From positions 1-18,115 of IMG/VR virus record IMGVR_UViG_2579778982_000016: 18,115 bases of DNA. One strand, given 5' to 3'. The DNA comes from a virus. Taxonomy: Duplodnaviria; Heunggongvirae; Uroviricota; Caudoviricetes. Positions 1 through 18,115 of the stretch are shown here, piece after piece. Position numbers and translations under genes: made by a program. Numbering within the stretch: the first letter of the stretch is position 1; every line of letters begins with the position of its first letter. Below the pieces are notes generated by a model, which did no database searches, had not been told where the DNA came from, and saw only the letters and a list, made by a program, of their open reading frames with translations.

Positions 1-2
1 AG

Positions 3-1910: not shown

Positions 1911-2000
1911 TTAACCCATAACGTGCAATGGCTGTCTTTATGAGGCCTGGCACCCTATTGCCTTCCGATGGGCTGAACATCGAGTAAACAGGGGTAACAA

Positions 2001-2894
2001 ATGGACCAGATGGCAGAAAACACACCAGAAGTTGAAATCGAAACCGATGCGTCAGAGCAGATTCCTGATGATGTCGAACTGGCTGAAGAAGTCGAAACAG
2101 AAGATGGCAGTGAGTCCTCCGGCAATGATGCAGAGGAAGCTACTGAAACTGATGGCGACGAATCAGAACAGGAATTCTACTTTGGTGACGAAAAGCTGGA
2201 TTCGCCAACCAGCGAAGATGGCGCAGAGCATGGACTGGTAAAACACCTGCGCAAGACGATTAAAGAGAAAGACCGCGAGCTGAAAGAGCTGATGCGTCAG
2301 TCTCAGAAACCCGTCGAGCAGCAGCCGGTAATAACTCAACCACCGCGAATGCCAAAACTGGATGATGAGGACATCGGTTTCGATGAAGAAATCTACCAGC
2401 AACGCATGGCTAAGTGGGCAGAGGATAACGGCAAGTACCAGCAACAGGAGATGGCTCGCAAGCAGAAGGAGCAGGAGCTTCAGGCTGCCTATCAAGAGCG
2501 ATTATCCAAATATCAGCAACGTGTTAAGGCTCTCAAAGTTCCTGGCTATCAGGAAGCAGAACAGGCCGTACTCGAGGAAATCCCCATCGAGACACAAAAC
2601 GCGATCCTGTTTGAGTCAGAGAAGCCGGAAATCGTTGTTCTGGCGCTCGGTCGCAACGCTGAACTGCGCAAGCAACTGGCAGAAGCTACCAACCCCGTAG
2701 CAATTGGTCGTCTGCTGGAACGTATCGAATCGAAGGCCAGAGTCATGCCAAAAGCAAAAACCACGGCAGCCACAACCCCGACAGTTAAGGGGAGCAACGG
2801 CGCAGTAATCAACAACCTCGGCAAATTGAAAGCCAAGGCGCTGGAAACTGGTGACTGGACGCCGTATTTCGCCGCTAAAAAGGCAAAAAAATAA
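2001..2894 (+). CDS. scaffolding protein (P22 gp8-like)
   Basis: 297 aa, between portal and coat as in P22. Strongly acidic low-complexity N-terminus, central charged coiled-coil-like region, basic C-terminus (AAKKAKK). GGGG motif precedes the ATG. Confidence 0.75.
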   Translation: MDQMAENTPEVEIETDASEQIPDDVELAEEVETEDGSESSGNDAEEATETDGDESEQEFYFGDEKLDSPTSEDGAEHGLVKHLRKTIKEKDRELKELMRQSQKPVEQQPVITQPPRMPKLDDEDIGFDEEIYQQRMAKWAEDNGKYQQQEMARKQKEQELQAAYQERLSKYQQRVKALKVPGYQEAEQAVLEEIPIETQNAILFESEKPEIVVLALGRNAELRKQLAEATNPVAIGRLLERIESKARVMPKAKTTAATTPTVKGSNGAVINNLGKLKAKALETGDWTPYFAAKKAKK

Positions 2895-2912
2895 CCTATC
2901 GGAGCATTAAAC

Positions 2913-4166
2913 ATGGCTAACCAATTAGCAAAAGACCTTGAAATCATGTTCGAAAACTACGTTGAAGGCTTTGAGGCCGCCTGCGTAGTTTCCCGTAACG
3001 CTAAAAAATTCCGTCCCGGTGATACAGCAATGCAGCGAGCAGGTGATGTTCTGTATCGTCCGCAGCATTACCACATGAACATTGAGGAAGGCCTAGACCT
3101 CAGCGGCAAAACGCCAACAGCACTGGTTCAGCGCCTTGTTCCTTCTGTGTTCAAGGAGCCGAAAAACATTCTGTACACTCTGGATGCGCGTGAAATGCGT
3201 GACCCGGAACATAAAACTGAAGCTGGTCGCGCCGCAGGTATGCGCCTTGCTGCACAGATTGACTCTGACCTGATTTCCATGGTCACGCAGCGTGCTACTA
3301 ACGTGATCACAATGGCTGACTCAACCACTGGTTCACAGGGTCGTGATTTGTGGAACTGTGCGGCAGGTATTGATGCCACCATGACGGCGATTGGTGTACC
3401 ACAGGGTATCAACCGCCGCTCTTTCTGGAACCCCTTCAACTACAAAGACCTTGCTGGCGAGCTTGGTCACCGTGCCTATGCTCAGGGCGCAACCCTGACA
3501 GCATACGAAAAAGCGCAGATCCCTCCGGTTGCGTCCTTCGATAGCTACAAGACCGATATTTCTGGTCGTGTTCCGAAGGGTACAGCAACTTCCATTACGC
3601 TGGCAGCAGCACCTGCGCACAAGGTTGAAGCGAAAGATGCTAACGAAATGCCAGTGGATAACCGACAGGGGACCATTACGGTATCTGCTGAAGGTTTGCA
3701 GGTTGGCGATGCGTTTACCATCGCAGGGGTGAATTCCGTACACCAGATCACCAAAGATACCACCGGGCAGCCGCAGGTATTCCGCGTTCTGGCAGTTAGC
3801 GGAACGACAGTAACTATCTCCCCGAAAATTCTGCCGCCTGACAACGCGGATGTCGCCAGCCGTCCATATGCAAACGTTGATGCTAATGCGGCAAGTAGCG
3901 CAGCAATCACCATTCTCAACAAAAATGCCGCACCGGCTAACCTGTTCTGGGCTGATGGTTCTGTTGAACTGATGTACGGCAAACTGGCGTTCCCGACTGG
4001 TCAGGGTCCACAGGTAATGACAGCAACCACCGAGCAGGGCGCTACACTGATCATGTCTTACGCCTTCGACCACATCAAAGGCGTAACCACTGCGCGTTTC
4101 ACCACTCTGTACGGTTGCTCTGTACTGGTTCCTGAATATACGGGCATCGTTATTGCCGGGCAGTAA
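2913..4166 (+). CDS. major capsid (coat) protein, P22 gp5-like
   Basis: 417 aa, directly after scaffold, GGAG RBS 9 nt upstream. Length and several segments (e.g. ANLFWADGS, PYANVDAN) resemble remembered P22/Sf6-type coat proteins. Followed by a strong intrinsic terminator. Confidence 0.88.
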   Translation: MANQLAKDLEIMFENYVEGFEAACVVSRNAKKFRPGDTAMQRAGDVLYRPQHYHMNIEEGLDLSGKTPTALVQRLVPSVFKEPKNILYTLDAREMRDPEHKTEAGRAAGMRLAAQIDSDLISMVTQRATNVITMADSTTGSQGRDLWNCAAGIDATMTAIGVPQGINRRSFWNPFNYKDLAGELGHRAYAQGATLTAYEKAQIPPVASFDSYKTDISGRVPKGTATSITLAAAPAHKVEAKDANEMPVDNRQGTITVSAEGLQVGDAFTIAGVNSVHQITKDTTGQPQVFRVLAVSGTTVTISPKILPPDNADVASRPYANVDANAASSAAITILNKNAAPANLFWADGSVELMYGKLAFPTGQGPQVMTATTEQGATLIMSYAFDHIKGVTTARFTTLYGCSVLVPEYTGIVIAGQ

Positions 4167-4172
4167 TTTAGG

Positions 4173-4196
4173 TGGGGCTTCGGCCCCATTTTTATT
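4173..4196 (+). terminator. rho-independent terminator/attenuator after coat gene
   Basis: Hairpin TGGGGC-ttcg-GCCCCA followed by TTTTTATT, 7 nt after the coat stop codon. Confidence 0.8.
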
Positions 4197-4207
4197 GGGA
4201 GAAGACA

Positions 4208-4396
4208 ATGGCACGAACAATGCTCTATAAGCCGGGCAACATGATCACCTGTGGTCAGTTTGCTGTCGATTACATCATTGTTGATGACGAAGAAGTTAAA
4301 TCTCACCTGAAAAAAGGCTGGGTAAAAACTCCTGAAGAAACCGCAACGAAGCAAAAAGTGGCTAAGGCGGAAGAAGATGGCGAAAACGAAGGGTGA
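4208..4396 (+). CDS. small hypothetical protein (62 aa) between coat and gp4
   Basis: ATG at 4208 preceded by GGGAG with 7-nt spacer; the tracked ORF (from 4172) would run through the terminator hairpin, so the internal start is preferred. 3' end overlaps the next gene start by 20 nt. Confidence 0.4.
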   Translation: MARTMLYKPGNMITCGQFAVDYIIVDDEEVKSHLKKGWVKTPEETATKQKVAKAEEDGENEG

Positions 4397-4838
4397 TCTC
4401 GTTCTTAAGGCTTTACGAAAAGCCGGGCTGTATTCCAATGCCACGTTGACAGATGCTGACCCTCAGGCAATTGAAGATGCCATTAATGACCTCGAAGACA
4501 TGATGGCAGCATGGCAGGCAAAAGGTATCGAGCTTGGGTATCAGTTTGCTGATACAGAAAACGGCATCATGCCGTTACCTGACGATGATTCAGGTATCCC
4601 TGCATGGGCAAATGATGGCGTCGCTTTGAAACTCGCTGTGCAAGTGTGCATGGATAACGTCATTCAGCCGTCAGACGCTCTCCTTACCGCTGCTGACAGT
4701 GCATATCAGACAATCTGTATCGCTTTAACCAAAATACCACCACTTGAGCGGAGAAATGACATGCCTCGCGGTAGTGGTAACAAAAGCGCGTTTACGTGGA
4801 ATCGGTTTTACATCGAGAAAGATGATCCGAGTACGTGA
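4377..4838 (+). CDS. head completion / tail adaptor protein (P22 gp4-like)
   Basis: 153 aa; position after coat and before the gp10-like gene matches P22 order. Assignment by synteny and size. Confidence 0.7.
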   Translation: MAKTKGDLVLKALRKAGLYSNATLTDADPQAIEDAINDLEDMMAAWQAKGIELGYQFADTENGIMPLPDDDSGIPAWANDGVALKLAVQVCMDNVIQPSDALLTAADSAYQTICIALTKIPPLERRNDMPRGSGNKSAFTWNRFYIEKDDPST

Positions 4839-4847
4839 GGTGAATAA

Positions 4848-6266
4848 ATGCCGATTCAGCAACTTCCGCTTATGAAAGGTGTCGGCAAAGACTTTCGAAA
4901 CGCCGACTATATCGACTATCTGCCAGTGAATATGTTGGCAACCCCCAAAGAAATCCTGAACAGCAGCGGATATCTTCGCTCATTCCCGGGCATTGCCAAA
5001 CGCTCTGATGTGAACGGTGTATCGCGCGGCGTCGAGTACAACATGGCGCAGAATGCTGTTTATCGTGTCTGTGGCGGCAAGCTCTACAAAGGCGAAAGCG
5101 AAGTCGGTGACGTCGCCGGAAGTGGTCGCGTATCAATGGCCCATGATCGGACATCACAGGCGGTAGGTGTTAACGGGAAACTGGTCGAGTATCGCTATGA
5201 TGGCACGGTTAAAACAGTCTCAAACTGGCCAACAGACAGCGGATTCACGCAGTATGAATTAGGTTCGGTCCGTGACATTACGCGCTTACGTGGGCGTTAT
5301 GCGTGGTCAAAAGACGGAACTGATTCATGGTTTATCACTGACCTTGAAGACGAATCGCATCCTGACCGCTACAGCGCACAATATCGCGCAGAATCGCAGC
5401 CGGACGGAATCATCGGTATCGGCACATGGCGAGACTTCATAGTCTGCTTTGGTTCATCAACGATTGAATATTTCTCCCTGACTGGTGCAACCACAGTTGG
5501 TGCCGCTTTGTATGTCGCACAACCATCACTGATGGTGCAAAAAGGCATTGCCGGAACTTACTGCAAAACGCCGTTTGCTGACTCGTATGCGTTCATCAGC
5601 AATCCGGCAACAGGTGCGCCGTCTGTATACATCATCGGCTCCGGTCAGGTATCACCAATCGCCAGCGCGAGCATTGAGAAAATCCTCCGCTCCTACACTG
5701 CTGATGAACTGGCTGATGGCGTGATGGAATCGCTGAGATTTGATGCGCATGAACTGCTGATTATCCATCTTACGCGCCACGTCCTCGTGTACGACGCATC
5801 TTCAAGCGCCAATGGTCCGCAATGGTGTGTACTGAAAACAGGCCTGTATGACGATGTGTACCGCGCTATCGACTTCATTTACGAAGGCAATCAGATAACG
5901 TGCGGCGATAAGCTGGAATCCATGACAGGGAAATTGCAATTCGACATCAGCAGCCAGTACGACAAGCAACAGGAACATCTGCTGTTTACTCCTCTGTTCA
6001 AAGCGGATAACGCCAGAGTGTTCGACCTTGAAGTTGAATCGTCAACTGGAGTTGCGCAGTACGCTGACCGCCTTTTTCTCTCTGCAACCACTGACGGCAT
6101 CAATTACGGGCGTGAGCAGATGATTGAGCAGAATGAACCGTTCGTTTACGACAAACGCGTTTTGTGGAAGCGTGTCGGGCGAATAAGGAAAAATGTCGGC
6201 TTCAAATTGCGCGTTATCACTAAGTCACCTGTCACTCTCTCAGGCTGCCAGATAAGGATTGAGTAA
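4848..6266 (+). CDS. head completion / tail hub protein (P22 gp10-like)
   Basis: 472 aa, the length remembered for P22 gp10; stop overlaps the next gene's ATG (TAATG). Confidence 0.8.
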
Positions 6267-6967
6267 TGGCGGATTCGAATCTCAATGTGCCGGTAATCAT
6301 TCAGGCTACACGGCTCGACACATCAGTCCTTCCACGCAATATCTTCTCGCAGTCGTATCTGCTTTACGTTATCGCACAGGGCACTGATGTTGGTAACGTG
6401 GCTAACAAGGCCAACGAGGCCGGACAGGGCGCTTACGATGCTCAGGTGAAAAACGATGAACAGGATGTCGAACTGGCTGACCACGATGCAAGAATCACCG
6501 CAAACACAAAAGCGATAAATCTCCTTGAGGTCAGGTTAACAACCGCCGAAGGGAAGATAGTCGTACTGCGTAGCGATGTTGATTACTTGCTGGATGAGGT
6601 TATCGATATTCAGGCGCATCTGGTCACTGTTGACCAAAGACTGGATGGCGTAGAAAGCGATGTATCTGACATTAAGAGTGATTACGTATCGAAAACCGTA
6701 ACCGAATCGCAGTCTCTTGCGTCACCGCTGGATGTAAAAACATCATATTCAGTTGATGGAATTCAGGTTGTTGGAGCAAGAAATACCGGATGGACTGCAG
6801 CCACAGGTACACCTCTTCTTGGCTCATTCAACGCTAACCAGTCATACACGGTCGGCACTACGTACACACAATCCGAAGTCGCGGCTCTCGCTACAGGTTT
6901 GCAGCAGGCGCGGCAGCGTATTCTGGCGCTTGAAACAGCACTTAGATTACATGGGCTGATTGACTGA
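6266..6967 (+). CDS. tail needle protein (P22 gp26-like)
   Basis: 233 aa. N-terminus (VIIQATRLD...[20 protein letters not shown]...[24 protein letters not shown]) and C-terminus (QARQRI.ALE.ALR.HGLID) match the remembered P22 gp26 trimeric coiled-coil needle. TGATG overlap with the next gene. Confidence 0.9.
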
Positions 6968-7422
6968 TGATTACATTCAAACCAACGCGAAACATCGACC
7001 TGATAGAAGCAGTCGGAAATCACCCCGACATTATCGCCGGGAGCAACAACGGTGATGGATACGACTACAAACCTGAATGCCGTTACTTCGAGGTGAACGT
7101 GCACGGGCAGTTCGGCGGCATTGTTTACTATCAGGAGATTCAGCCGCTGACATTCGATTGCCACGCCATGTACCTGCCAGAGATTCGCGGATTCAGCAAG
7201 GAAATCGGGCTGGCGTTCTGGCGATACATTCTGACCAACACCACCGTTCAGTGCGTCACATCATTCGCTGCACGCAAATTCCGCCACGGTCAGATGTACT
7301 GCGCAATGATTGGCCTTAAGCGTGTAGGAACCATCAAGAAATACTTCAAAGGCGTGGATGACGTGACGTTTTACAGCGCAACACGCGAAGAACTAATCGA
7401 CTTCCTGAATCACGGGAGATAG
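6967..7422 (+). CDS. head assembly / ejection-associated protein (P22 gp14-like)
   Basis: 151 aa; between tail needle and the ejection-protein genes as in P22. Called on synteny. Confidence 0.6.
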   Translation: MITFKPTRNIDLIEAVGNHPDIIAGSNNGDGYDYKPECRYFEVNVHGQFGGIVYYQEIQPLTFDCHAMYLPEIRGFSKEIGLAFWRYILTNTTVQCVTSFAARKFRHGQMYCAMIGLKRVGTIKKYFKGVDDVTFYSATREELIDFLNHGR

Positions 7423-7424
7423 CC

Positions 7425-8117
7425 ATGTTATATGCATTTAAGCTGGGCAGAAAACTGCGCGGCGAGGAACCTTATTGCCCTGAAAAAGGCGGGAAAGGTG
7501 GCAGTTCTGATAAAAGCGCAAAGTATGCAGCAGAAGCTCAGAAGTATGCCGCAGACCTGCAAAATCAGCAGTTCAACACCATCATGAACAACCTGAAGCC
7601 GTTTACTCCTCTGGCTGATAAGTATGTCGGCAGCCTCGAGAACTTATCGTCTCTGGAAGGGCAAGGTCAGGCACTTAACCAGTATTACAACTCTCAGCAG
7701 TACAAAGATCTTGCTGGTCAGGCTCGCTATCAGAGTCTGGCGGCAGCGGAAGCAACGGGTGGATTAGGTTCCACAGCAACCAGTAATCAGTTAGCAACAA
7801 TCGCACCAACGCTTGGTCAGCAATGGCTATCTGGACAAATGAACAATTACAACAACCTGGCAAATATCGGTCTTGGCGCTCTTCAGGGGCAGGCAAACGC
7901 CGGGCAAACATATGCCAACAACATGAGTCAGATTTCACAGCAAAGCGCGGCGCTGGCTGCGGCAAACGCCAACCGACCGTCAGCATTGCAGCAGGGGGTT
8001 AGTGGTGCTGCATCCGGTGCGCTTTTGGGTGGTGGCATAGCCAGTGCTCTCGAGCTATCAACTCCGTGGGGTGCTGGTATTGGTGCTGGTCTTGGTCTGC
8101 TTGGTTCACTGTTTTAA
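7425..8117 (+). CDS. ejection (injection) protein, P22 gp7-like
   Basis: 230 aa; Q/N/A-rich with a glycine-rich hydrophobic C-terminus (GALLGGGIASALELSTPWGAGIGAGLGLLGSLF); first of three consecutive ejection-protein genes. Confidence 0.75.
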   Translation: MLYAFKLGRKLRGEEPYCPEKGGKGGSSDKSAKYAAEAQKYAADLQNQQFNTIMNNLKPFTPLADKYVGSLENLSSLEGQGQALNQYYNSQQYKDLAGQARYQSLAAAEATGGLGSTATSNQLATIAPTLGQQWLSGQMNNYNNLANIGLGALQGQANAGQTYANNMSQISQQSAALAAANANRPSALQQGVSGAASGALLGGGIASALELSTPWGAGIGAGLGLLGSLF

Positions 8118-8127
8118 GGGTTAATCA

Positions 8128-9513
8128 ATGGCTACGTGGCAACAGGGTATTAATTCTGGTGGTTTTCTGGCTGGCATCGGTACGCAAAATGAGAATGCGC
8201 CAAAGGCAAGCGACATTAACGCAACGCTTGGTCTGATCCGCGAAAACAATGAACTGGCTCGCTCAGGTGCAAATAACGTTGGTCTGACCGCGTTACGTGG
8301 TCTGGCTGGAGTTGCTGATATTTACAATCAGGAACAGCAACAGAAAGCTATTAGTGCGTTCAATAAGGTTCACGCTGATGCATGGGCTTCTGGTGATCCA
8401 TCGGGACTATTTAAGTTTGCCCAGGAAAATCCAGCGTTTGTTGCACAGGCACAACAGGCGTTTTCCGGTCTTAATGATCAGCAACGCAACGATATGGGCG
8501 ATTTAGCCATGAGGGCTAACGTCGCTCTTTCTCAGGGACCGGAAGCCTACAGTAAATTCATTACTGACAACAAGGACAGGTTAAATCGCGTGGGTGCGAA
8601 TGCTGACTGGATGATTCAGACAGGTATCCAGAATCCAGAGCAGCTATCACACATGCTGACTACTATGTCTCTCGGTGCGCTTGGACCAGAAAAGGCGTTT
8701 GCTGTTCAGGACAAGATGGCTGGTCGTGAAATTGACCGAGGCAGACTGGCAGAGACAATCCGCAGCAATCAGGCTGGAGAAGCACTTCAGGCGAGAGGGC
8801 AAAACCTTTCCTATCAGTCAGCAATGACTGGACACGGACTTGCAGCAGAAAGACTGGCACTTGATAAGCAGAAATTCGGTTTTGAAGTACAACAGGCACA
8901 AAAGAAGGCCGATGAACTTATTAATGCTGCGCCAAAACTATCCGTGAACATGGAAAAGGCTATAGAAAAATCAGCAGGTGATGCGGCAGCTAGTCGTAAT
9001 GCTGCCGATTCAATGACAACGCTTGCTGACACGCTTGAGAAGGAGAAGCCAACTCCTGGTTTGTTCGGTAACGCTGAAAATATGTTCTCTAAGCTTACGG
9101 GGCAAGATAACTACCTCCGAGATGTGCGGATTAGATTCAACCAACTAGCCAATGCGCAGGCAACCAAGCTTCTCCCTCCCGGCCCTGCATCAGATAAGGA
9201 TATTGAGTTTGCAAGGAAAGGCATTCCAAGCGAAACGGATAATCCAATGGTTATGGCTCGATGGTTAAGGGGTATGGCAAAAATGGAAAGTAATAACGCG
9301 AAATTCAACGAGTTTAGGTCAGAGTGGATGAGTGCAAACGGCAGCCCAGGACAATCTGATCGCAACCGAAACATCATGGGGATGGATGTTAAGAAGGGTG
9401 AATCATTGAACTCTGCGGCAAAACGTTTTCTTTCCTCAAGTTATGGCGATAGCCAACCTCAACAGCAATTGTCCGATGACGAATTAATTAGCAAATATCT
9501 CGGAGGGCAGTAA
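8128..9513 (+). CDS. ejection (injection) protein, P22 gp20-like
   Basis: 461 aa; second ejection-protein position; TAATG overlap with the next gene. Confidence 0.75.
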
Positions 9514-11339
9514 TGGCTTATAGTCGTGAACAATTGATGACGGCGTTAAGGAATGCTGATGCTGCTGGTGATACTGAGGGAGCACGTCGCATTGCTCAGA
9601 TGCTGTCTTCTGGTGATCAATCCACTCAAAACCAATCGCAGCCAGAAGAACAATCTCTGGTAGGAAAAGCTACTGACTGGCTCACTGGTGGTCAAAGTGC
9701 AGGGCAAATTGCTGAACAGGCTGGTCGTGGTCTGGTAAACATACCATTTGACGTATTGCAGGGTGGTGCAAGTCTGATTAATGCAATCAGCCAGGGGCTT
9801 GGTGGCCCAAAGGTTTTGGATGATGTTTATCGTCCAGTAGACAGACCGACAGACCCCTACGCTCAAGCTGGAGAAACAATTGGCGGGTATTTAGTTCCAG
9901 GAGTTGGAACGGCAGGAAGCATGGCTATTGGATCACTGGCAGAAGCCGCAAATCAGAAAGGCGATTTCGCGCAAAATGCAGCAAGAAACGCCGGAGTTAA
10001 CCTTGCCGCTCAGGGGGTTCTTTCCGCAGCAGCAAAGGGAATAGGGCGTGGAATAACGGCTATAAAAGGTGATATTGCGCCAGAAGTGGCGAAGAAAATT
10101 GCCACATCAGAATCGATGGGCGTGACACCAATGACATCTGATGTTATCCCGCCGAAAAATGCTTTCACTCGCGGCCTTACTCAGGATGCCGAGGGGGCTT
10201 TGCTCGGGACAGGCTCAAAGCGAGCTGAGCAATATGCAACGCGTAGTAAGCTGGTAAGTAATTATTTTGACCGTTTTGGTGAGTACAACCCTGATGATGT
10301 GGTGAAATCTCTGACCACCACGTTAAGGGGGCGGAAGGATGCCGCTGGCGCTGTTATCAATGACGTCACCAATAAAATGGGTAATGCCGCAGTTGATACC
10401 ACAAATACCATGAATGCTCTGAATACAGCGATCGCAAGACAGGAACGGCTTGGGACGTCTGCCAATCAAAGCCTGCTTACATCCTTGCGTAACCTACGTG
10501 AAGAATTAGCAAACCCTGCAACTGATTTGGATGTTACGTTTGATCTCTTGCGTCAGCACAGAACAGCATTTAGATCTAATGTTCAGGGAGATGCTATGGT
10601 CTTCCCCAACCAGGCAAAAGCAGCTACCAATATGGTAGAGAATGCAATGTCAAAAGACCTTCGTAACGCAGTTGCTAAAAACCTCGGTGCATCAGACGCA
10701 GCAAAATACCTTAAAGCAAATTCCGATTATGCAAACGTTTATAATAAGGTGCTTAATAAAAACATTGCTAACAAGCTCAACAAGGCAAGCAGTGAAGCCA
10801 GTCCTGAACTTATAAATACCGTTGTATTAAGCAGAAAACCATCTGACGTTAAACGAATCTGGAGCGCATTGGATGATAATGGGAAAGATGCTATGCGTGC
10901 AGCTTACGTCAGCAAAATAGCGGAAAAGGCCGGGGACTCTCCAGCCAAGTTCATCACTGAAGTTAATAAGCTGAAATCTCAGTCAGGCGGTGAAATTTAC
11001 AACACTATTTTTTCTGGAAAGCACATGAAAGAGCTTGATGCTCTTCATGAAGTTCTACAGCAAACAGCAAGGTCAGACACCGCAAATGTAGTAACTCAGA
11101 CGGGGCAATCGCAAGCCAACAGGATAAGGACGATTGGCGCAACTGCGACTCTTGGGGCAACACTGGCGCTTGAATCTGGTTTCGGTGCAATGATGCGCTT
11201 GTATGAATCCAAAGCCGCAAGGAATGCGCTCTTACGTCTGGCAAACACTAAAGCTGGAACGCCAGCCTATGAAAGAGCGCTGAATAACGCCGCAAATGCC
11301 ATCAGACCAATACTTGCCAATGATGCAACTGATCGCTAA
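9513..11339 (+). CDS. ejection (injection) protein, P22 gp16-like
   Basis: 608 aa against a remembered ~609 aa for P22 gp16; third ejection-protein position; last gene of the conserved late block. Confidence 0.8.
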
Positions 11340-11360
11340 GGGTTGATGTCATGGATGTTG

Positions 11361-11999
11361 TTAATTGCGAATGGAATCGCGGAACTCTTTACTTGATAGA
11401 AAAGGATCTGTTCTCCTTAACTCATCATAGTTTTTATTAAACTTTCTTGCTTCACCAGGGTATCTGTTGAACAAAACATTGCAGAAAAAAGAGAGCAATA
11501 ACTCACATATGAATGCTAATATCCTGAAAAATAAAGGTATAAAAAGAAGGAAAGGTTCATTGAAGTCTCTATTCCAAACAAAATAGACAATCATCCCGAC
11601 ATACCAAATTGATATCCCTATACTGATGATTGTTCCAACAGAGGTAACTACGATCCCGATTAAGTCGGACAGTCTGTTTGCCAGTAACTCATTTGAGTAT
11701 CTTGCAATCATATACCGCCAACATTTTGCAATATCATCCTGATCTGTAGAGTCTTCTGGAATGGCTAGGCTTCTACATATTGAAGCAGCTCTTTTTTTCT
11801 CAACTCTTTTTGAGAGCCATCCATTAAAGAGATACATCAACACCTGCGTTGCTATTCCTGCACCAAGTGATATCAAAGACATCCCCAAAAATCGCCACCC
11901 TGGAGATAGTGACTGGTACTGCCAAACAAAAAAAATTAAAAAACCTAATGATCCTATGACATAGGCTGATGTATCGCTATATATATCTATTTTTTTCAT
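11361..11999 (-). CDS. multi-pass inner-membrane protein, candidate superinfection-exclusion protein (sieA-like by position)
   Basis: ATG at 11999 (complement) preceded by GGAGTGG with 7-nt spacer; the tracked ORF's upstream extension lacks an RBS. About 4 hydrophobic helices (AYVIGSLGFLIFFVWQ, FLGMSLISLGAGIATQVLMYLF, IGIVVTSVGTIISIGISIWYVGMIVYFVW, FLLFIPLFFRILAFICELLLSFFCNVLF). AT-rich, opposite strand, convergent on gp16. Occupies the slot where P22 carries sieA. Confidence 0.6.
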   Translation of the reverse strand: MKKIDIYSDTSAYVIGSLGFLIFFVWQYQSLSPGWRFLGMSLISLGAGIATQVLMYLFNGWLSKRVEKKRAASICRSLAIPEDSTDQDDIAKCWRYMIARYSNELLANRLSDLIGIVVTSVGTIISIGISIWYVGMIVYFVWNRDFNEPFLLFIPLFFRILAFICELLLSFFCNVLFNRYPGEARKFNKNYDELRRTDPFLSSKEFRDSIRN

Positions 12000-12066
12000 T
12001 GAGTAGCCACTCCTTAGTTTTGAGCAGGATACCAGATGATAATGTGTAGTTGGAGTAGCGCGGTTG

Positions 12067-12160
12067 TAATGCAAGCATTTTGTTTTAGTTTTATGCTTGC
12101 TTGTATGTGTGTACAGTGCATATAATGCAAGCATACATCACAACAAAGGTGCTTGCATTA
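12067..12160. promoter_or_regulatory. divergent promoter/operator region with repeated inverted repeats
   Basis: TAATGCAAGCAT occurs at 12067-12078 and 12123-12134, each followed 14-15 bp later by its inverted complement (ATGCTTGC at 12093-12100; TGCTTGCATTA at 12150-12160). Sigma70-like -35 TTGCTT (12097-12102) and -10 TATAAT (12121-12126), 18-bp spacer, point at the 12160 gene. Confidence 0.55.
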
Positions 12161-13146
12161 TGACTGAAAAGAAAAGTGGCGAAGGGAAAGCTAAGGGTGG
12201 GATCGCTCGCGCAAAGTCGCTGACTAAAGAGCAGCGTTCTGAAATAGCAAAGAAAGCAGCGGCAAAACGATGGGAAGGTAAGCCACTAAGAGCGATCAGA
12301 AAGGGTAACTTCATTGATGATTTCGGCATTGATGCAGAATGTTACGTACTTGATGATAATGATAAAACGGTTGTAGTTAGTAAAACTGGTCTGGCTAAAT
12401 TACTAGGAATCGGTGAGCATGGTAGGGATGTAGACCGTTTTCTAAATACGAATTATATGGCTGATTTTGTCGATCCATTTTTGCTAGAAAAATTCAAAAA
12501 ACCTCTTATTTTTCAATGGAGAAGTCCGGTCCCAAACTCAGCCCCAAATCCACTCGCTGATGAGGCTCACGGTTACGATATTGCCCTTATCGGCGATATA
12601 GCCACAGCAATGATTAATGCCGATCGAGCTGGCGCTCTACCGCCTTCAAGATCAAAATCTGCCAGCCTTGCCCAAAGACTTGTTACCGCATCAATGAAAG
12701 CAGGGCTTAAAGGACTTGGTTATGCTATTGCAGGATATCGACCTGAAGTACAGGAGGTTATTGATTCCTTCAAGGCCTTTGTTCGTGAAGAGGCGAGGCA
12801 GTATGAAAAAGAATTTCCAGATGAGCTATATGAGGAGTGGTATCGACTGTACGGCCTGAACAGGCCAGAGAAAGGACGTCCAATTCGTTTTGGGCAGCTA
12901 ACCAACATGCAGATATACACTCCTCTAGCAAAGAGTAAAGGTAAAATCCTTGAACAGATTCGAGCCAGCCGAGACGAGAACGGAAAACAATCTGATAAGT
13001 TGCACCTGTTCCTTTCTGAAATTGGTGTCAAGGCTTTGCGTCAGCATATCGGTAAGCTTCTTGGTGTCGCAGCGATGAGCGAGACAAGAGAAGAATACGA
13101 AAAAGGAATCGAAAAGGTTTTTGGAAGAATAAAACCAGAAATCTAA
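12160..13146 (+). CDS. hypothetical protein (328 aa) with basic N-terminal motif, possibly P63C-domain family
   Basis: ATG at 12160 preceded by AAAGG; the tracked TTG start at 12097 lies inside the promoter repeats. N-terminus KGGIARAKSLTKEQRSEIAKKAAAKRWEG resembles a short basic motif I recall at the start of phage proteins annotated P63C; family assignment unverified. Confidence 0.6.
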   Translation: MTEKKSGEGKAKGGIARAKSLTKEQRSEIAKKAAAKRWEGKPLRAIRKGNFIDDFGIDAECYVLDDNDKTVVVSKTGLAKLLGIGEHGRDVDRFLNTNYMADFVDPFLLEKFKKPLIFQWRSPVPNSAPNPLADEAHGYDIALIGDIATAMINADRAGALPPSRSKSASLAQRLVTASMKAGLKGLGYAIAGYRPEVQEVIDSFKAFVREEARQYEKEFPDELYEEWYRLYGLNRPEKGRPIRFGQLTNMQIYTPLAKSKGKILEQIRASRDENGKQSDKLHLFLSEIGVKALRQHIGKLLGVAAMSETREEYEKGIEKVFGRIKPEI

Positions 13147-13153
13147 TTATGAA

Positions 13154-13176
13154 CCCACCTGACGGTGGGTTTTTTA
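13154..13176 (+). terminator. rho-independent terminator
   Basis: CCCACC-tgac-GGTGGG hairpin followed by TTTTTT, 8 nt after the stop of the 328-aa gene and immediately before the next gene's RBS. Confidence 0.75.
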
Positions 13177-13188
13177 TAAGGAGTAATC

Positions 13189-13374
13189 ATGACCATAGAA
13201 GAACGCCTGAACAACATTGAGTTGAATCAAACCCTGCTTGACCAGCGACTTTCAGATCTTGAGCTTAAAGATCTTGATGCGCAAATATCAGAAGCAGAAG
13301 CCAAGCTCTCCAGCTTAAACCACCGTAAGAAGCAAATCCGCGACAGAATTACTCGTGGACGCGGAGGCTGTTAA
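13189..13374 (+). CDS. small coiled-coil protein (61 aa)
   Basis: Strong SD AAGGAG with 5-nt spacer to ATG. Sequence is heptad-like and charged (LNNIELNQTLLDQRLSDLELKDLDAQISEAEAKLSSL); no recognisable family. Confidence 0.5.
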   Translation: MTIEERLNNIELNQTLLDQRLSDLELKDLDAQISEAEAKLSSLNHRKKQIRDRITRGRGGC

Positions 13375-13451
13375 GGCGTGATGGTAATCCTTGCTCACTA
13401 AATTTAAAGATGCGAATCTTTCCGGCCATAGGAGTAATCATGATTTACCCA

Positions 13452-13988
13452 TCAAACAACCCACCAGTTTGCCTGATTGGATACCAGCCTTGCAGTTTTT
13501 ATGGAATTAATTATGCCATGCTCAAGAGCCTTGTTAGCATCCAAAATGGTCGAGTCTGCTATCAGGGATGCCCACCTAATATGGGTTCCGATGTCGATAT
13601 TGAACGTCTCAACGAAGCGATCAAGATCGTTATCGAGGCATTTCCCGTACTCTCTCAATCTGGCATGGTCGGCGGCTGGGGTGGCAAAGCCCCATAATAG
13701 AGGATGTAACAGGAATCTTGATAATGGGTTTGCGAAACGTTCTGAGCCAGCCAGGAAAACGATATTAGCTATGGATTCAACATTGCTTATGTTGTGAGTT
13801 CTAACGGTAACAGGGAGTGACTTAAGAAAGTTATACGCAGTAAAGCCAGCGGCAGTTTCCCCTCCCTGACTTGATATATGGATATTTAATTCAGTTGCGC
13901 CTTGAGATAATGCGGTGAGACAGTGGTTCTGAAGTTGCCCAACAGTGGCGGTGTTAACGGGGCATAAGAAATGAATTGTGTGCAGCAT
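13452..13988 (-). CDS. ClpP-fold serine protease-like protein (178 aa)
   Basis: Translation aligns by eye along its length with E. coli ClpP core: IHISSQGGETAAGFTAYNFL vs INSPGGVITAGMSIYDTM; VRTHNISNVESIANIVFLAG vs [20 protein letters not shown] (catalytic Ser aligned); FLLHPLLWG vs VMIHQPLGG (catalytic His aligned); TILDANKALEHGIINSI vs FLSAPEAVEYGLVDSI. Start ATG overlaps the mnt stop (ATAAATAATG) with AAGGA upstream. Confidence 0.65.
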   Translation of the reverse strand: MLHTIHFLCPVNTATVGQLQNHCLTALSQGATELNIHISSQGGETAAGFTAYNFLKSLPVTVRTHNISNVESIANIVFLAGSERFANPLSRFLLHPLLWGFATPAADHARLREYGKCLDNDLDRFVETFNIDIGTHIRWASLIADSTILDANKALEHGIINSIKTARLVSNQANWWVV

Positions 13989-14236
13989 TATTTATCATCC
14001 TTACCATACATGGTTTTCAGCGTCTCCAGCAGCGCCTCTTTGAATTTGTCAGCTTCTTGCTGAGCAAATGACTCAACTGACTTTGGCGACCTATCTTCAT
14101 CAATCGCGGCTTGCAAAATCATGACGATCTCGGAGTTAACAGAGCGACCATTTTTTGATGCTCTAACAGCAAGAGCCTCGCGCAAAGATTCAGGGATTCT
14201 TACCGTAGTTGGAGAAATTGACACACCCTTTGCCAT
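13988..14236 (-). CDS. mnt: Mnt-like ribbon-helix-helix repressor
   Basis: 82 aa; N-terminal RHH with the NGRSVNSEI signature shared with P22 Mnt (NGRSMNSEL) and Arc; charged C-terminal helix for oligomerisation; divergent from arc-ant as in P22 immI. Confidence 0.8.
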   Translation of the reverse strand: MAKGVSISPTTVRIPESLREALAVRASKNGRSVNSEIVMILQAAIDEDRSPKSVESFAQQEADKFKEALLETLKTMYGKDDK

Positions 14237-14350
14237 ATCACACCTTTGGTATTCAATTTGATATCAAAGTGTATGCAAAAAAATTTTGACTAGATATACT
14301 CACTTTGCTATCTTTTGTATTCGAAAAGAGTTGTTTGCGTGGAGGGTAAC
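14237..14350. promoter_or_regulatory. divergent Pmnt / Pant control region with candidate operators
   Basis: Perfect 12-bp palindrome TTTGATATCAAA at 14257-14268. Rightward -35 TTGACT (14286-14291) and -10-like TATCTT (14309-14314), 17-bp spacer, ahead of arc; GGAGGG RBS at 14341-14346. Confidence 0.55.
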
Positions 14351-14503
14351 ATGGAGAAAGAAATAAGTAAGATTTTGGTAAGGATGCCGCAGTCGTTAAA
14401 GGATGCTATCGGTAGCAGGGCAAAGGAAGAGTGCAGGTCGTTTAACTCAGAGGTTATCAAGCGCCTGATAGACAGCCTGAAGAGAGAGGGGGTAACGGTG
14501 TGA
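14351..14503 (+). CDS. arc: Arc-like ribbon-helix-helix repressor
   Basis: Internal ATG at 14351 with GGAGGG RBS gives 50 aa, close to P22 Arc (53 aa). MPQSLKD...SFNSEVIKRLIDSLKREG parallels P22 Arc MPQFNLR...SVNSEIYQRVMESFKKEG. Confidence 0.75.
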   Translation: MEKEISKILVRMPQSLKDAIGSRAKEECRSFNSEVIKRLIDSLKREGVTV

Positions 14504-14673
14504 TTCGCTTGGATGCAGTAGTCAAAGAGATTGCGATTACCATTTTAAGACCAAATTTTGTTCATGGCGAATCATTTGGCACGAACGAAAAATTGAGAAG
14601 AGAAAGAGTATTCAGTGGCAAGCGCACGTTTTCAGAAGTGATGCTTGATGCGGCAAAGAAATCAAAACAGTGA
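14500..14673 (+). CDS. possible small ORF (57 codons, GTG start) in the arc-ant intergenic region
   Basis: GTG at 14500 overlaps the arc stop (GTGTGA), with GAGGGGG 8 nt upstream. Frame is open for 57 codons to TGA at 14671-14673. Below the ORF-track length cutoff. No homology recognised; could be non-coding spacer hosting a sar-like antisense RNA. Confidence 0.25.
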
Positions 14674-14735
14674 AGCCCCAACTGCTGGAACAGTCAGGGC
14701 TTCGGTTGTCGGTAAATCCGTGGAGAAAAACCAAC

Positions 14736-15638
14736 ATGAATAGTATAGCAATTTTAGAAGCAGTGAACACCTCTTACGTGCCATTCAACGGTCAGCAAAT
14801 TATCACCGCCATGGCTGCCGGAGTTGCATATGTTGCGATGAAGCCAATCGTTGAAAACCTCGGAATGAGCTGGTCAACGCAGCAAACAAAACTCATGAAG
14901 CAGATTAGCAAATTCAACTGTGTTCATATGAACATGGTTGCCGCTGATGGTAAGCTTCGTAAGCTACTCTGCCTTCCTTTGAAGAAGTTAAATGGATGGC
15001 TGTTCAGCATCAACCCTGAGAAAGTTCGTGCTGACATCCGCGATAAACTGATTCAGTACCAGGAAGAATGCTTTACTGTGCTGCATGACTACTGGACAAA
15101 GGGAGAGGCAGCAAATGCACGGAAGAAAACATCTGTTGATGACAGGACTCCGCTTCGTGATGCTGTAAATATGCTAGTCAGCAAAAAGCATCTAATGTAC
15201 CCAGAAGCTTATGCAATGATTCATCAGCGTTTCAATGTGGAAAGTATTGAAGAGCTTGATGCATCTCAGATACCACAAGCAGTAGAGTACATCCACAGGG
15301 TAGTGCTTGAAGGTGAGTTCATCGGCAAACAAGAGAAGAAAACCAACGAGCTTTCTGCAAAAGAAGCAAACAGCCTTGTATGGCTATGGGATTATGCCAA
15401 CCGCTCACAGGCATTATTCCGCGAACTGTATCCGGCGCTAAAACAAATTCAATCGAACTATTCCGGCAGATGCTACGACTACGGTCATGAATTCTCGTAT
15501 GTTATCGGAATGGCGAGAGACGTTTTAATAAACCACACACGAGATGTTGATATTAATGAACCAGACGGACCAACGAATCTTTCCGCATGGATGAGACTTA
15601 AGAATAAAGAATTACCTCCTTCAGTACATAACTACTGA
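14736..15638 (+). CDS. ant: antirepressor Ant
   Basis: ATG at 14736 gives 300 aa starting [21 protein letters not shown], which matches my recollection of P22 Ant in sequence and length; follows arc as in immI. The tracked GTG start at 14670 is probably an artefactual extension. Confidence 0.85.
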
Positions 15639-15656
15639 TAGATAACCAACGCAACG

Positions 15657-15680
15657 ACCCAGCTTCGGCTGGGTTTTTTT
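15657..15680 (+). terminator. rho-independent terminator after ant
   Basis: ACCCAGC-ttcg-GCTGGGT hairpin followed by seven T. Confidence 0.85.
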
Positions 15681-15738
15681 ATGCCCAAAATTCACCGTAG
15701 CCATGCTTCGGCGATTCCTTGTATCTGGAGCAAATTAA

Positions 15739-17787
15739 ATGACAGACATTACAGCCAATGTTGTAGTAAGCATGCCTTCGCAACTCTTCACTATGGCTCG
15801 TTCTTTTAAAGCCGTAGCCAATGGCAAAATTTATATCGGTAAAATTGACACGGACCCGGTAAATCCTGAAAACCAGATTCAGGTTTATGTAGAGAATGAA
15901 GACGGTTCTCACGTTCCTGTTCCGCAACCAATCATCATTAACGCCGCTGGATATCCGGTATATAACGGACAGATTGCCAAGTTCGTAACTGTGCAAGGCC
16001 ATTCTATGGCTGTTTATGATGCGTATGGTTCGCAGCAGTTCTACTTTCCTAATGTGCTGAAGTATGATCCGGATCAGCTAAGACATGAGCTAGCGTCGGA
16101 AGCGGGAACAACTTTAATAGGGAAGGGTGATCGAACTCTTGAAGAGTACTTAGAATCAAGCAAGGAAGATTTTGATAACTCATGGAAGAGATATGTAGGT
16201 AAATCTACAACGACACAAAAAGATAGCGCATACTCTGGAGCGGCTCACTACCAACCAGTTAGCGATGATGGGAGCGCAATTGGTAATTATACATTTGAAT
16301 CACCGGTGATTGTTGACTTCTCATCTACATCAGATTGTGTTATGCCAGATTCTGGTGTCGTTTTCAAAATGGGAGCTAATGGACTTACAAGTGGTAATTA
16401 TTTTTCTCAAGATAATTACCACTTAAAAAATGTAACGGCAATTGGCGGCACTCCTGAAATTGTTACATTTGAACCATACACAGGATTGACAGCACTAGTA
16501 GATGGTGTTCGCATTATAAATAATGGCTCTCCAGACAAGACCGCTATTAATTTTAAAGGACAGAACTGGTGGCCTACAGTATCTAATAATATATTTAAAG
16601 ATTATACAGATAAAAGAGGAAATTTTTGCAAGGCAATAGATGACGGAGGAGATTTATCTATAAGAAGGAGTGGGAATAGTAGATTGCTTTTCACTGGAAA
16701 TAAAGTCTACTTTGGTGGGGATGCTCTTGGTGGTACGATGTTGAAAGCCAGCGCTGTCTTTAATATTATAAAAGATAATGCCTGTGAACACGGAGAGAAC
16801 GCGATTGTGTTTGAGTACCCATCATCATTCTCAGTTGTCGACGGACTTTACACAGAATGTTCTTTTGGTGGTGGTAATCAGATAGTAATTGGTGACAAAG
16901 AACCTGATCCTAATATTGCAACAATGAATATGATTGGAATAACTATTAAGAATGTTTATTTCAATAATCATTCACATTCATCAAATAGGCTAATCAAATC
17001 TGGAAATGAAACCGTAAGAATAGACAGGTTAATTGTTGATAATATAATTGTCACAAATGCAAATGTTGCATCGCCAGTTATTGAGTTGAATGATGTTCCC
17101 GGGCAATCGATTTGTGTCGGAAATGTATACTCTGGAGTTTCACTAATAAATAAAACAAGCAATGCTGTAAAAATAATAGATATGAATAATAATTTTATTA
17201 AATCGCTAAATGGTAATTTAGCGTCTTCGGGGGGGGACTCCGCAACAGTAAATAATTCTAGAGAAAAAGTATTTGGTAACTTTTTTATTCAATCAACAGG
17301 AAGTTTGTCAGTTAGCAGATATGCAAGTGGTAATCAGTATCAAAAAAATAGAGAGTCAAAGAACTACGCGGCTATAACCATAGTTCCTAATACTTCGTGC
17401 GGTTTTGAGTGGCAGAACCCAAGATATTCAGACCTATCTGGATCTATAGCAACAGTTCAGTTTCTAGCCAAAGCAAGCACTACAGTGAGTGCAGTAGTTT
17501 TAGTTAAATACAAGAACAGTTCTGGAGGTGACACGCTTGCAGCATCATCAATTAGTATTAATGGTGGTGATTTTCAGGAGTTTACTATTCCATTCTTTGC
17601 TAACCGCAATGATGATGATGATTCTGTTCTCTCTGTTGATATTAGATTTGAAAATACATTATCAAGCATTGTTTTTTATGTTTGTGCTTTTAGATTAAAC
17701 AGGGGGGATACAGGACTATGCCGGTCTGCTAATGATTATACGACAGGAGAGATTGATGCAGAGATATCAAAATTCACATTTTATTAA
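15739..17787 (+). CDS. tailspike protein: P22 gp9-type head-binding N-domain fused to a divergent receptor-binding domain
   Basis: First ~113 aa ([60 protein letters not shown]...[11 protein letters not shown]) are near-identical to the remembered P22 tailspike head-binding domain. The remaining ~570 aa are unrelated to P22 gp9, AT-rich, with beta-helix-like G/N/V/I-rich repeats. GGAG RBS upstream. Confidence 0.9.
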
Positions 17788-17884
17788 TCTACGCAGATCT
17801 TTATAAAATCTGAGACAAGAGTTGGTGGCGGAAAAGCTTTGTACTGGATTGCAAAGCTTTGTGCTATTCGGTAGTTAAGGTGGG
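17788..17884. other. candidate attP / integrase-binding region between tailspike and int
   Basis: About 97 bp non-coding between convergent tailspike and int. Two direct copies of AAAGCTTTGT (each containing the palindrome AAAGCTTT) at ~17835-17845 and ~17861-17871; short hairpin GGTGG-gtcact-CCACC-TTTT at the int 3' end. Confidence 0.35.
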
Positions 17885-18115
17885 TCACTCCACCTTTTCA
17901 TCAATCCAATCCGCCCACCACTGCATCATTTCTCTGCGCTTATCGAGATACTGCGCATGGTTGTAAATACCGCGCACAGATCCGCCGTTGGCATGTGCCA
18001 GTTGCACTTCAATAGCATCAGCAGGCCATTCGTGCTCGTTCATAATCGTGCTGAATTCATGCCTGAATCCGTGACCGCTTTCCAGACCTTCATAGCCGAT
18101 TTGTTTGATCACAAG
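17885..18115 (-). CDS. int: tyrosine integrase, C-terminal part (gene continues beyond window end)
   Basis: Translation ...HGFRHEFSTIMNE...AIEVQLAHANGGSVRGIYNHAQYLDKRREMMQWWADWIDEKVE carries the His-x-x-Arg box and a C-terminal Tyr region typical of lambda-family tyrosine recombinases. Reading frame is open to the window edge. Confidence 0.8.
   Translation of the reverse strand, partial: LVIKQIGYEGLESGHGFRHEFSTIMNEHEWPADAIEVQLAHANGGSVRGIYNHAQYLDKRREMMQWWADWIDEKVE

Follow-up and report, generated by a model that had tools for sequence, protein, structure and literature searches.

A short ClpP-family protein encoded by a P22-like prophage of Escherichia coli and translationally coupled to mnt: a possible modulator of Clp-dependent proteolysis in lysogens

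The DNA considered here is the 18,115-nucleotide stretch formed by positions 1 to 18,115 of the IMG/VR virus record IMGVR_UViG_2579778982_000016 (hereafter the window), which comprises the late genes and the immI region of a P22-like phage (Lederbergvirus) carried as a prophage by Escherichia coli. On its minus strand, directly behind a homologue of the P22 repressor gene mnt, lies an open reading frame (ORF) for a 178-residue protein with the fold of ClpP (Table 1). The two genes share a single nucleotide: at the junction, GAT AAA TAA TG, the mnt stop codon TAA occupies positions 13990-13988 and the protease ATG positions 13988-13986, and an AAGGA Shine-Dalgarno sequence (14002-13998) is placed nine bases upstream, within the final mnt codons. 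A first-pass annotation, made by a model from the letters of the DNA, had given the coordinates of this gene and its overlap with mnt, and both proved exact; it had also proposed that the product is a ClpP-fold serine protease with an apparently intact catalytic triad, acting as a standalone accessory protein in lysogens.

The membership of the ClpP family is well supported. Pfam PF00574 (CLP_protease) matches residues 24-165 with a score of 46.7 bits, the cutoff being 20.2 (E=4.3e-12), and the AlphaFold2 (AF2) model, with a predicted local distance difference test (pLDDT) score of 91, has the ClpP fold with its long handle helix at residues 108-132, so profile search and model agree with the serine peptidase fold proposed at first. 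When the PDB was searched with HMMER, one structure stood apart, 9uxt (a 'Clp protease' of 183 residues, E=4.6e-35), all other ClpPs being found at 1e-8 or weaker; likewise, Foldseek gave a template modelling (TM) score of 0.89 to 9uxt, at 38% identity, whereas canonical ClpPs reached 0.70-0.78, with E. coli ClpP at 0.70. The PHROGs and NCBIfam collections returned a sub-threshold likeness both to ClpP-related head-maturation proteases and to ClpP itself (PHROG_94 'head maturation protease', 5e-21; NF045542, 3.7e-13, 49.7 bits for a cutoff of 120). Finally, a profile search covering 1.84 billion representative proteins yielded 252 clusters at E<=1e-30, mostly of 180-200 residues among the best matches listed, which indicates a broad family of short ClpP-like proteins.

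The active site was examined in an alignment of the window protein with 137 family representatives (138 sequences), to which E. coli ClpP was added. Ser72 and His95 align with Ser111 and His136 of E. coli ClpP (precursor numbering) and are invariant in 138 of 138 sequences, as are G42/G43, R84 and F92; the serine and the histidine are thus where the first-pass annotation had placed them. The same cannot be said of its intact triad: the column of the catalytic Asp is occupied by Ser146 in the window protein and by Gly, Ala, Pro or Ser across the family, and the acidic residue noticed nearby, Asp145, lies one residue off this column and is not conserved, relatives having Glu, Gln, Lys or Arg in its place. 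The N-terminal axial-loop region is missing, as had been claimed, residue 2 of the window protein being aligned with residue 40 of the E. coli precursor. In this alignment, the protein lacks both the catalytic Asp and the axial loops, two traits that define a canonical ClpP, and it reads as a Ser-His, gate-less ClpP-fold subunit without an intact triad.

The pocket in which unfoldases dock was considered in the same alignment. We take the IGF pocket of E. coli ClpP to be formed by Y60, Y62, F82, I90, M92, F112, L114 and L189, the identities of which agree with the aligned E. coli residues. The window protein carries N35, H37, S57, H65, I67, F85, N87 and K164 at these positions, and six of the eight are therefore polar or charged, as judged by sequence alignment. 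Such a subunit probably cannot dock an unfoldase.

The closest CHARACTERISED homologue, PDB 9UXT, is ClpP1 of Pseudomonas plecoglossicida (PpClpP1; PLoS Pathog 2026, PMC12900304). PpClpP1 forms a homotetradecamer in which the N-terminal region is missing and the axial pore is 42.7 A wide; in its 'Ser-His-Pro' site the serine and the histidine are essential and the third residue is dispensable (PMC12900304). As a peptidase it is 13-fold less active than the canonical paralogue, it does not degrade casein or GFP-ssrA when alone, and it neither binds nor pulls down ClpX; together with canonical ClpP, it forms a stable heterotetradecamer that has higher peptidase activity and still binds ClpX (PMC12900304). 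The likeness with the window protein extends to length (183 and 178 residues), to the missing axial region, to the retained Ser-His pair and to the replacement of the Asp by a residue that is not acidic: Ser146 is aligned with the Pro of the PpClpP1 AYPRIL motif, which we take to be the authors' Pro151. With its about 180 residues, its short N-terminus, its Ser-His site with a non-acidic third residue and its far greater proximity to 9UXT than to any other ClpP in the PDB, the window protein is almost certainly a ClpP-family member of the PpClpP1 type, and it is a new, prophage-borne one. There are also differences, as PpClpP1 was treated as a chromosomal paralogue in a paper that mentions neither phages nor prophages (PMC12900304), and related Pseudomonas loci lie among ordinary metabolic genes, whereas the window gene is prophage-borne, coupled to mnt and probably expressed in lysogens. 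Because PpClpP1 is weak alone and gains activity only in the mixed tetradecamer with canonical ClpP, the standalone character attributed to the window protease has become doubtful, although its accessory character holds.

The window protein also resembles the second paralogue of bacteria with two ClpP proteins (M. tuberculosis ClpP1P2, Listeria ClpP1/2, P. aeruginosa ClpP1/ClpP2), in which the second paralogue is weak or inactive alone and makes up one ring of a heterotetradecamer on which the unfoldase docks on one ring only. Structural matches of the window protein to 4ryf and 4u0g have a TM-score of about 0.77. These systems are nevertheless host-encoded and their proteins are only about 20-24% identical to the window protein and longer (194-208 residues); here, by contrast, the second paralogue would come from a prophage.

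The gene upstream is a true homologue of mnt, as the first-pass annotation stated: residues 13-79 of its product, 82% of the length, have 37.5% identity with P22 Mnt, and the product also matches Pfam FitA-like_RHH (2.1e-08). The 1-nt overlap between stop and start is kept in 50 loci, with 14 distinct Mnt proteins (35-100% identity), one of which has the N-terminal sequence of P22 Mnt, and this architecture implies the co-expression with mnt that had been foreseen. All 14 Mnt proteins end in a ...ETLKTMYGKDEK-type tail, ...ETLK(T/K)(M/I)Y(G/A)KD(E/D/N)K, and this shared tail contains the ribosome-binding site of the protease, whose Shine-Dalgarno sequence is conserved across the 14 alleles. 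The occurrence of 14 Mnt variants with one common C-terminal tail points to a recombination boundary inside mnt, and the sequences imply that the protease travels with the last ~12 codons of its neighbour. The variants presumably differ in operator specificity. Across these loci the protease remains 98-100% identical while Mnt, Arc (35-100%) and Ant (~29-100%) vary widely.

The gene is under purifying selection, dN (nonsynonymous divergence) being 0.126 and dS (synonymous divergence) 1.63 relative to a Pectobacterium allele, and S72 and H95 are unchanged in all 20 distinct near-identical DNA alleles. A decaying remnant was considered and ruled out by the resulting dN/dS of ~0.08 and by the intact S72/H95 in these 20 alleles.

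In P22 itself, the order on the corresponding strand is mnt-ORF59-sieA and the protease gene is missing, so the comparison bears out the first-pass statement that a protease gene is not known at this position of the canonical P22 immI region. ORF59 and sieA, the accessory genes of the P22 immI region, resemble the window gene in position and strand, 3' of mnt on the side expressed in lysogens, but they are unrelated to the protease, and P22 mnt is not translationally coupled to the gene downstream. Taken together, the sequence comparisons support a prophage moron rather than a canonical immI component.

Using tblastn, we found the protein in only six of 50,697 phage records, all of them E. coli phages. 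At >=95% identity, it is present in 128 of 5,426 complete E. coli genomes (~2.4%), always on the chromosome and in up to three copies per genome. The carriers include the type strain DSM 30083 (ATCC 11775) as well as avian and extra-intestinal pathogenic strains (APEC/ExPEC). A relative is also encoded by 128 IMG/VR contigs, and more distant alleles occur in prophages of Klebsiella, Proteus, Pantoea and Pectobacterium. One member at 51% identity, on the 50 kb, non-mobilizable plasmid NZ_CP091500.1 of the Enterobacter cloacae complex (45568-46110), is the sole plasmid record; this replicon may be a phage-plasmid.

Genomic contexts were established for ~170 loci by marker-based tblastn and by extraction of the upstream ORF; since naive ORF calls gave spurious antisense ORFs in the high-GC loci of Massilia and Pseudomonas, we relied there on marker tblastn and ran Pfam on a selection of long ORFs. 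An Mnt-like gene with the 1-nt overlap precedes every allele of >=79% identity, with the exception of derivatives disrupted by deletions or insertion sequence (IS) elements, some copies being cut by the latter. The alleles of this group are located either in P22-like immI regions or, as a whole mnt-protease/arc/ant block, in lambdoid phages, where PhiR12_1 and others (loci L002, L110-L114, L122, L125, L132, L134 and L136 of our set) have this block between the tail genes L and K. An immI-like block inserted between L and K indicates that the module moves between unrelated virion types. A deletion derivative is found in Escherichia phage E212 (MZ043897, locus 5001-5579), which keeps the protease and has lost mnt and arc. 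The E212 protease is unannotated and 100% identical in amino-acid sequence, with ant ~500 nt away, and the loss of mnt may explain why this phage was isolated as a plaque-forming phage from sewage.

Alleles of 45-60% identity, by contrast, stand alone, with no ribbon-helix-helix gene nearby. In lambdoid prophages of Klebsiella and E. coli they lie between the lysis cassette and the terminase, in Proteus beside N, and in Mu-like prophages of Pantoea between the tape measure gene and the DNA-circularisation gene; wherever phage genes were identified beside them, these lie on the opposite strand. The Klebsiella copy is preceded by a promoter-like site, and a terminator-like hairpin directly follows its stop codon. 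In the Klebsiella loci L084-L087 the homologue (gene 6001-6717) was called with 238 residues, a 60-residue N-terminal extension that is unique in the family; its true start is probably an internal Met (MIHTVHF...). No phage-encoded partner gene recurs across the sites compared. Outside phages, chromosomal members are found in Pseudomonas, Massilia and Actinomycetota, with neighbours such as a permease, an aldo-keto reductase, dnaE and hisD; no Pfam family matched two long ORFs of the Massilia context.

The remainder of the window is organised as expected for a P22-like phage (Table 1). Portal, scaffold and coat genes are followed by head-completion and needle genes, the ejection proteins and a sieA-like gene, and then by the P63C-domain gene with the 61-residue ORF, the 178-residue ORF, mnt, arc, a 57-residue ORF, sar, ant and the tailspike gene. 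The sieA-like gene, which shares the strand of mnt and the protease, marks the far end of the accessory slot. This slot, between gene 16 and the protease, varies among otherwise near-identical prophages: instead of the P63C-domain gene and the 61-residue ORF, others carry a Panacea-domain gene together with a hypothetical one, or a hypothetical gene beside one for a YafO-family toxin. It has the look of a hotspot where cassettes of toxin-antitoxin or defence-like genes are exchanged.

Table 1. Position of the protease gene and of the other features described in the window.
Feature	Coordinates	Strand	Evidence or remark
Portal-scaffold-coat head module	27-4166		Protease not encoded in it
SieA-like membrane protein	11361..12134	-	phrog_7745 (superinfection exclusion SieA-like), 2.9e-20
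P63C-domain protein (349 residues, PF10546) and 61-residue coiled-coil-like ORF	12097-13374	+	Between the sieA-like gene and the protease
ClpP-family subunit, 178 residues, PpClpP1 type	13452..13988	-	ORF; Pfam PF00574; PDB 9uxt; AF2 model
Coupling junction (Shine-Dalgarno, mnt TAA, protease ATG)	13986..14002	-	Read from the sequence
mnt homologue, ribbon-helix-helix maintenance repressor, 82 residues	13988..14236	-	Pfam Arc PF03869, 9.6e-11
Divergent mnt/arc-ant control region	14237..14314	.	Promoter scan and inverted repeats
arc homologue, first gene of the ant operon	14315..14503	+	Pfam Arc 9.6e-12; annotated Arc in phiv205-1 and IMT5155
sar antisense RNA, immI regulator of ant translation	14669..14735	-	Rfam RF00262, 83.9 bits (gathering 43), E=2.7e-17
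ant antirepressor	14670..15638	+	P22_AR_N 5e-45, P22_AR_C 6.7e-30; annotated in phiv205-1
Tailspike, intact, 682 residues, P22 head-binding domain	15739-17787		

Within the divergent control region, a Pant-like promoter at 14286-14314 (+) is a consensus match only, with a score not above that of shuffled sequences, and the inverted-repeat search returned a possible operator, an imperfect palindrome of 36 bp (14245-14280). The sar RNA has a terminator-like hairpin at 14703-14672 (-) and lies directly upstream of the ATG at 14736 that is annotated in relatives as the ant start. With mnt, arc, sar and ant all found in this layout, the P22 immI regulatory arrangement is otherwise canonical. The 57-residue ORF between arc and ant (14500-14673, +) begins with GTG and overlaps the arc stop; it is hypothetical in phiv205-1 and IMT5155, has no Pfam match and is not present in P22. 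The tailspike genes of the closest relatives, phiv205-1 and APEC IMT5155, are interrupted by an IS66-family element, and the receptor-binding part of the window tailspike differs from theirs.

Several explanations for a ClpP-like gene at this place have to be compared. In phiv205-1 the gene is annotated as a head-maturation (prohead) protease; GenBank MN340231 has 'head maturation protease', the PHROG_94 and NF045542 matches go in the same direction, and proteases of this kind share with the window protein the S14/ClpP fold, the Ser-His site and a phage origin. However, the NF045542 score is below the cutoff, no C-terminal capsid-targeting extension is present, the nearest relatives are cellular ClpP paralogues, and the gene lies on the opposite strand, outside a head module that runs from portal to scaffold to coat without any protease, in keeping with the first-pass view of P22-type heads. 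P22-type capsids mature without proteolysis, which counts further against this explanation. Its score, position, strand and family led us to reject it, and we consider it barely credible. The 1-nt overlap of a small ribbon-helix-helix gene with a larger gene downstream is, on the other hand, the classic architecture of type II toxin-antitoxin pairs, and since the upstream protein matches FitA-like_RHH and the Mnt C-terminal tail is conserved across alleles, 'Mnt' could be thought of as an antitoxin that neutralises a protease toxin. This is hardly compatible with the prophages of Klebsiella, Proteus and Pantoea and the chromosomal loci, in which the protease gene has no ribbon-helix-helix partner, nor with E212, where the protease exists without mnt; moreover, one partner allele carries the P22 Mnt N-terminal sequence, and the conserved tail is the protease ribosome-binding site. 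As the gene so often stands alone, a toxin-antitoxin pair was also rejected, being very improbable.

Two other explanations deserve more weight. The protease could be a self-sufficient effector of defence or superinfection exclusion, a homo-oligomeric, ungated enzyme that degrades incoming-phage proteins, or host factors needed by them, without host ClpP. The wide pore of its homologue PpClpP1 would suit such an enzyme, the gene shares a lysogen-side accessory slot with a sieA-like gene, in the way that sieA is 3' of mnt in P22, related prophages have a Panacea-domain gene or a YafO-family toxin gene nearby, and the gene runs opposite to its phage neighbours at every phage site that was identified. 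Yet PADLOC, run on the protease, Mnt and the genes around them, gave nothing for the protease (no PADLOC-DB 2.0.0 family at E<=0.1), we found no paper in the open-access literature that ties a ClpP-type protease to phage defence, PpClpP1 alone is a weak peptidase, inactive on casein and GFP-ssrA, and many family members are chromosomal, in non-phage contexts; we thus regard an autonomous effector as unlikely. Alternatively, the protease could be a component dedicated to immI, removing leaky Ant (or Arc) and so reinforcing repression by Mnt and guarding the lysogen from induction. Strict translational coupling would fix its stoichiometry relative to Mnt, the restriction of the alleles of >=79% identity to mnt/arc/ant modules (deletion and IS derivatives such as E212 apart) is in line with such a function, and the entire mnt-protease/arc/ant block moves as a unit into the lambdoid L-K tail region. 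But a protease that is nearly constant is a poor fit with specific recognition of an Ant or Arc that varies so widely, the 45-60% alleles have neither mnt nor ant nearby, and E212 retains the protease without mnt and arc, and this function therefore seems to us more improbable still than autonomous defence. We found no relevant paper in the open-access literature on a link between antirepressors and ClpXP.

The explanation that we prefer, tentatively and with the reservations given below, is that the gene is a moron encoding a gate-less PpClpP1-type subunit that pairs with host ClpP and retunes Clp proteolysis in the lysogen. According to this proposal, the protein, which has the Ser72-His95 dyad but lacks the Asp and the axial loops and whose docking pocket is mostly polar, would be a catalytically competent subunit, and its gene would have been grafted exactly at the mnt stop codon. 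Transcription would start at Pmnt and translation would be coupled, so that the protease would accompany the maintenance repressor wherever this is synthesised, namely in lysogens. In P22, mnt encodes the maintenance repressor expressed in lysogens, and so the protease should be made there in proportion to Mnt. By homology, the subunits would assemble into heptameric rings of the ClpP type, and the phage ring itself would dock neither ClpX nor ClpA; it would most likely become effective by stacking on a ring of host ClpP. In a mixed tetradecamer of this kind, binding of the unfoldase would fall to the host ring while the phage ring would contribute additional or altered peptidase capacity, so that Clp-dependent proteolysis would be retuned in the lysogen. 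This would probably benefit the prophage or its host, for example through prophage stability, control of unstable regulators or interference with incoming phages. Two considerations direct us to host ClpP: the four other phage positions, without any recurring phage neighbour, and the cellular orthologues make a host protein more likely as partner than Mnt, Arc or Ant, and the sole biochemistry available for the family points to a canonical ClpP ring. By analogy with PpClpP1, a heterocomplex with host ClpP is a possibility to be taken seriously, although we hold it to be somewhat doubtful.

Several observations weigh against this proposal. The identity to PpClpP1 is just 38%, so that a heterocomplex with E. 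coli ClpP is an extrapolation; ClpX-dependent degradation by PpClpP1P2 was only 'slightly higher' (PMC12900304), and the physiological effect could for this reason be small; and the chromosomal, non-phage members indicate that the family has a cellular role unrelated to phages. In addition, simple consensus scans of the window picked up neither a Pmnt-like promoter nor a terminator after the protease, these scans having scored no higher than shuffled sequence.

The fold and the family are already known; what is new at this locus is that such a protein occurs in a phage, that its gene is coupled to mnt and that it may hijack host ClpP. In the open-access literature, we found no description of a non-structural ClpP paralogue as a prophage moron or in an immI region. 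Phage ClpP-like genes are routinely annotated as head-maturation protease or as host 'ATP-dependent Clp protease proteolytic subunit', and the window gene is neither; the locus is a real, widespread and cleanly testable oddity. A more general and, to our mind, rather unlikely extension is that temperate phages of Enterobacterales use a gate-less ClpP paralogue as a 'donor ring', which caps a host ClpP heptamer and reprograms proteolysis by ClpXP and ClpAP. If this were true, specific regulators or incoming-phage proteins could be stabilised or destroyed, and such genes would constitute an unrecognised class of prophage immunity or host-takeover functions acting via the host protease. Should the pairing with host ClpP itself be true, lysogeny would change one of the central machines of proteolysis in the cell, with possible effects on prophage stability, stress responses and competition between phages, and the recently solved 'orphan' ClpP family of the PpClpP1 type would acquire a biological context.

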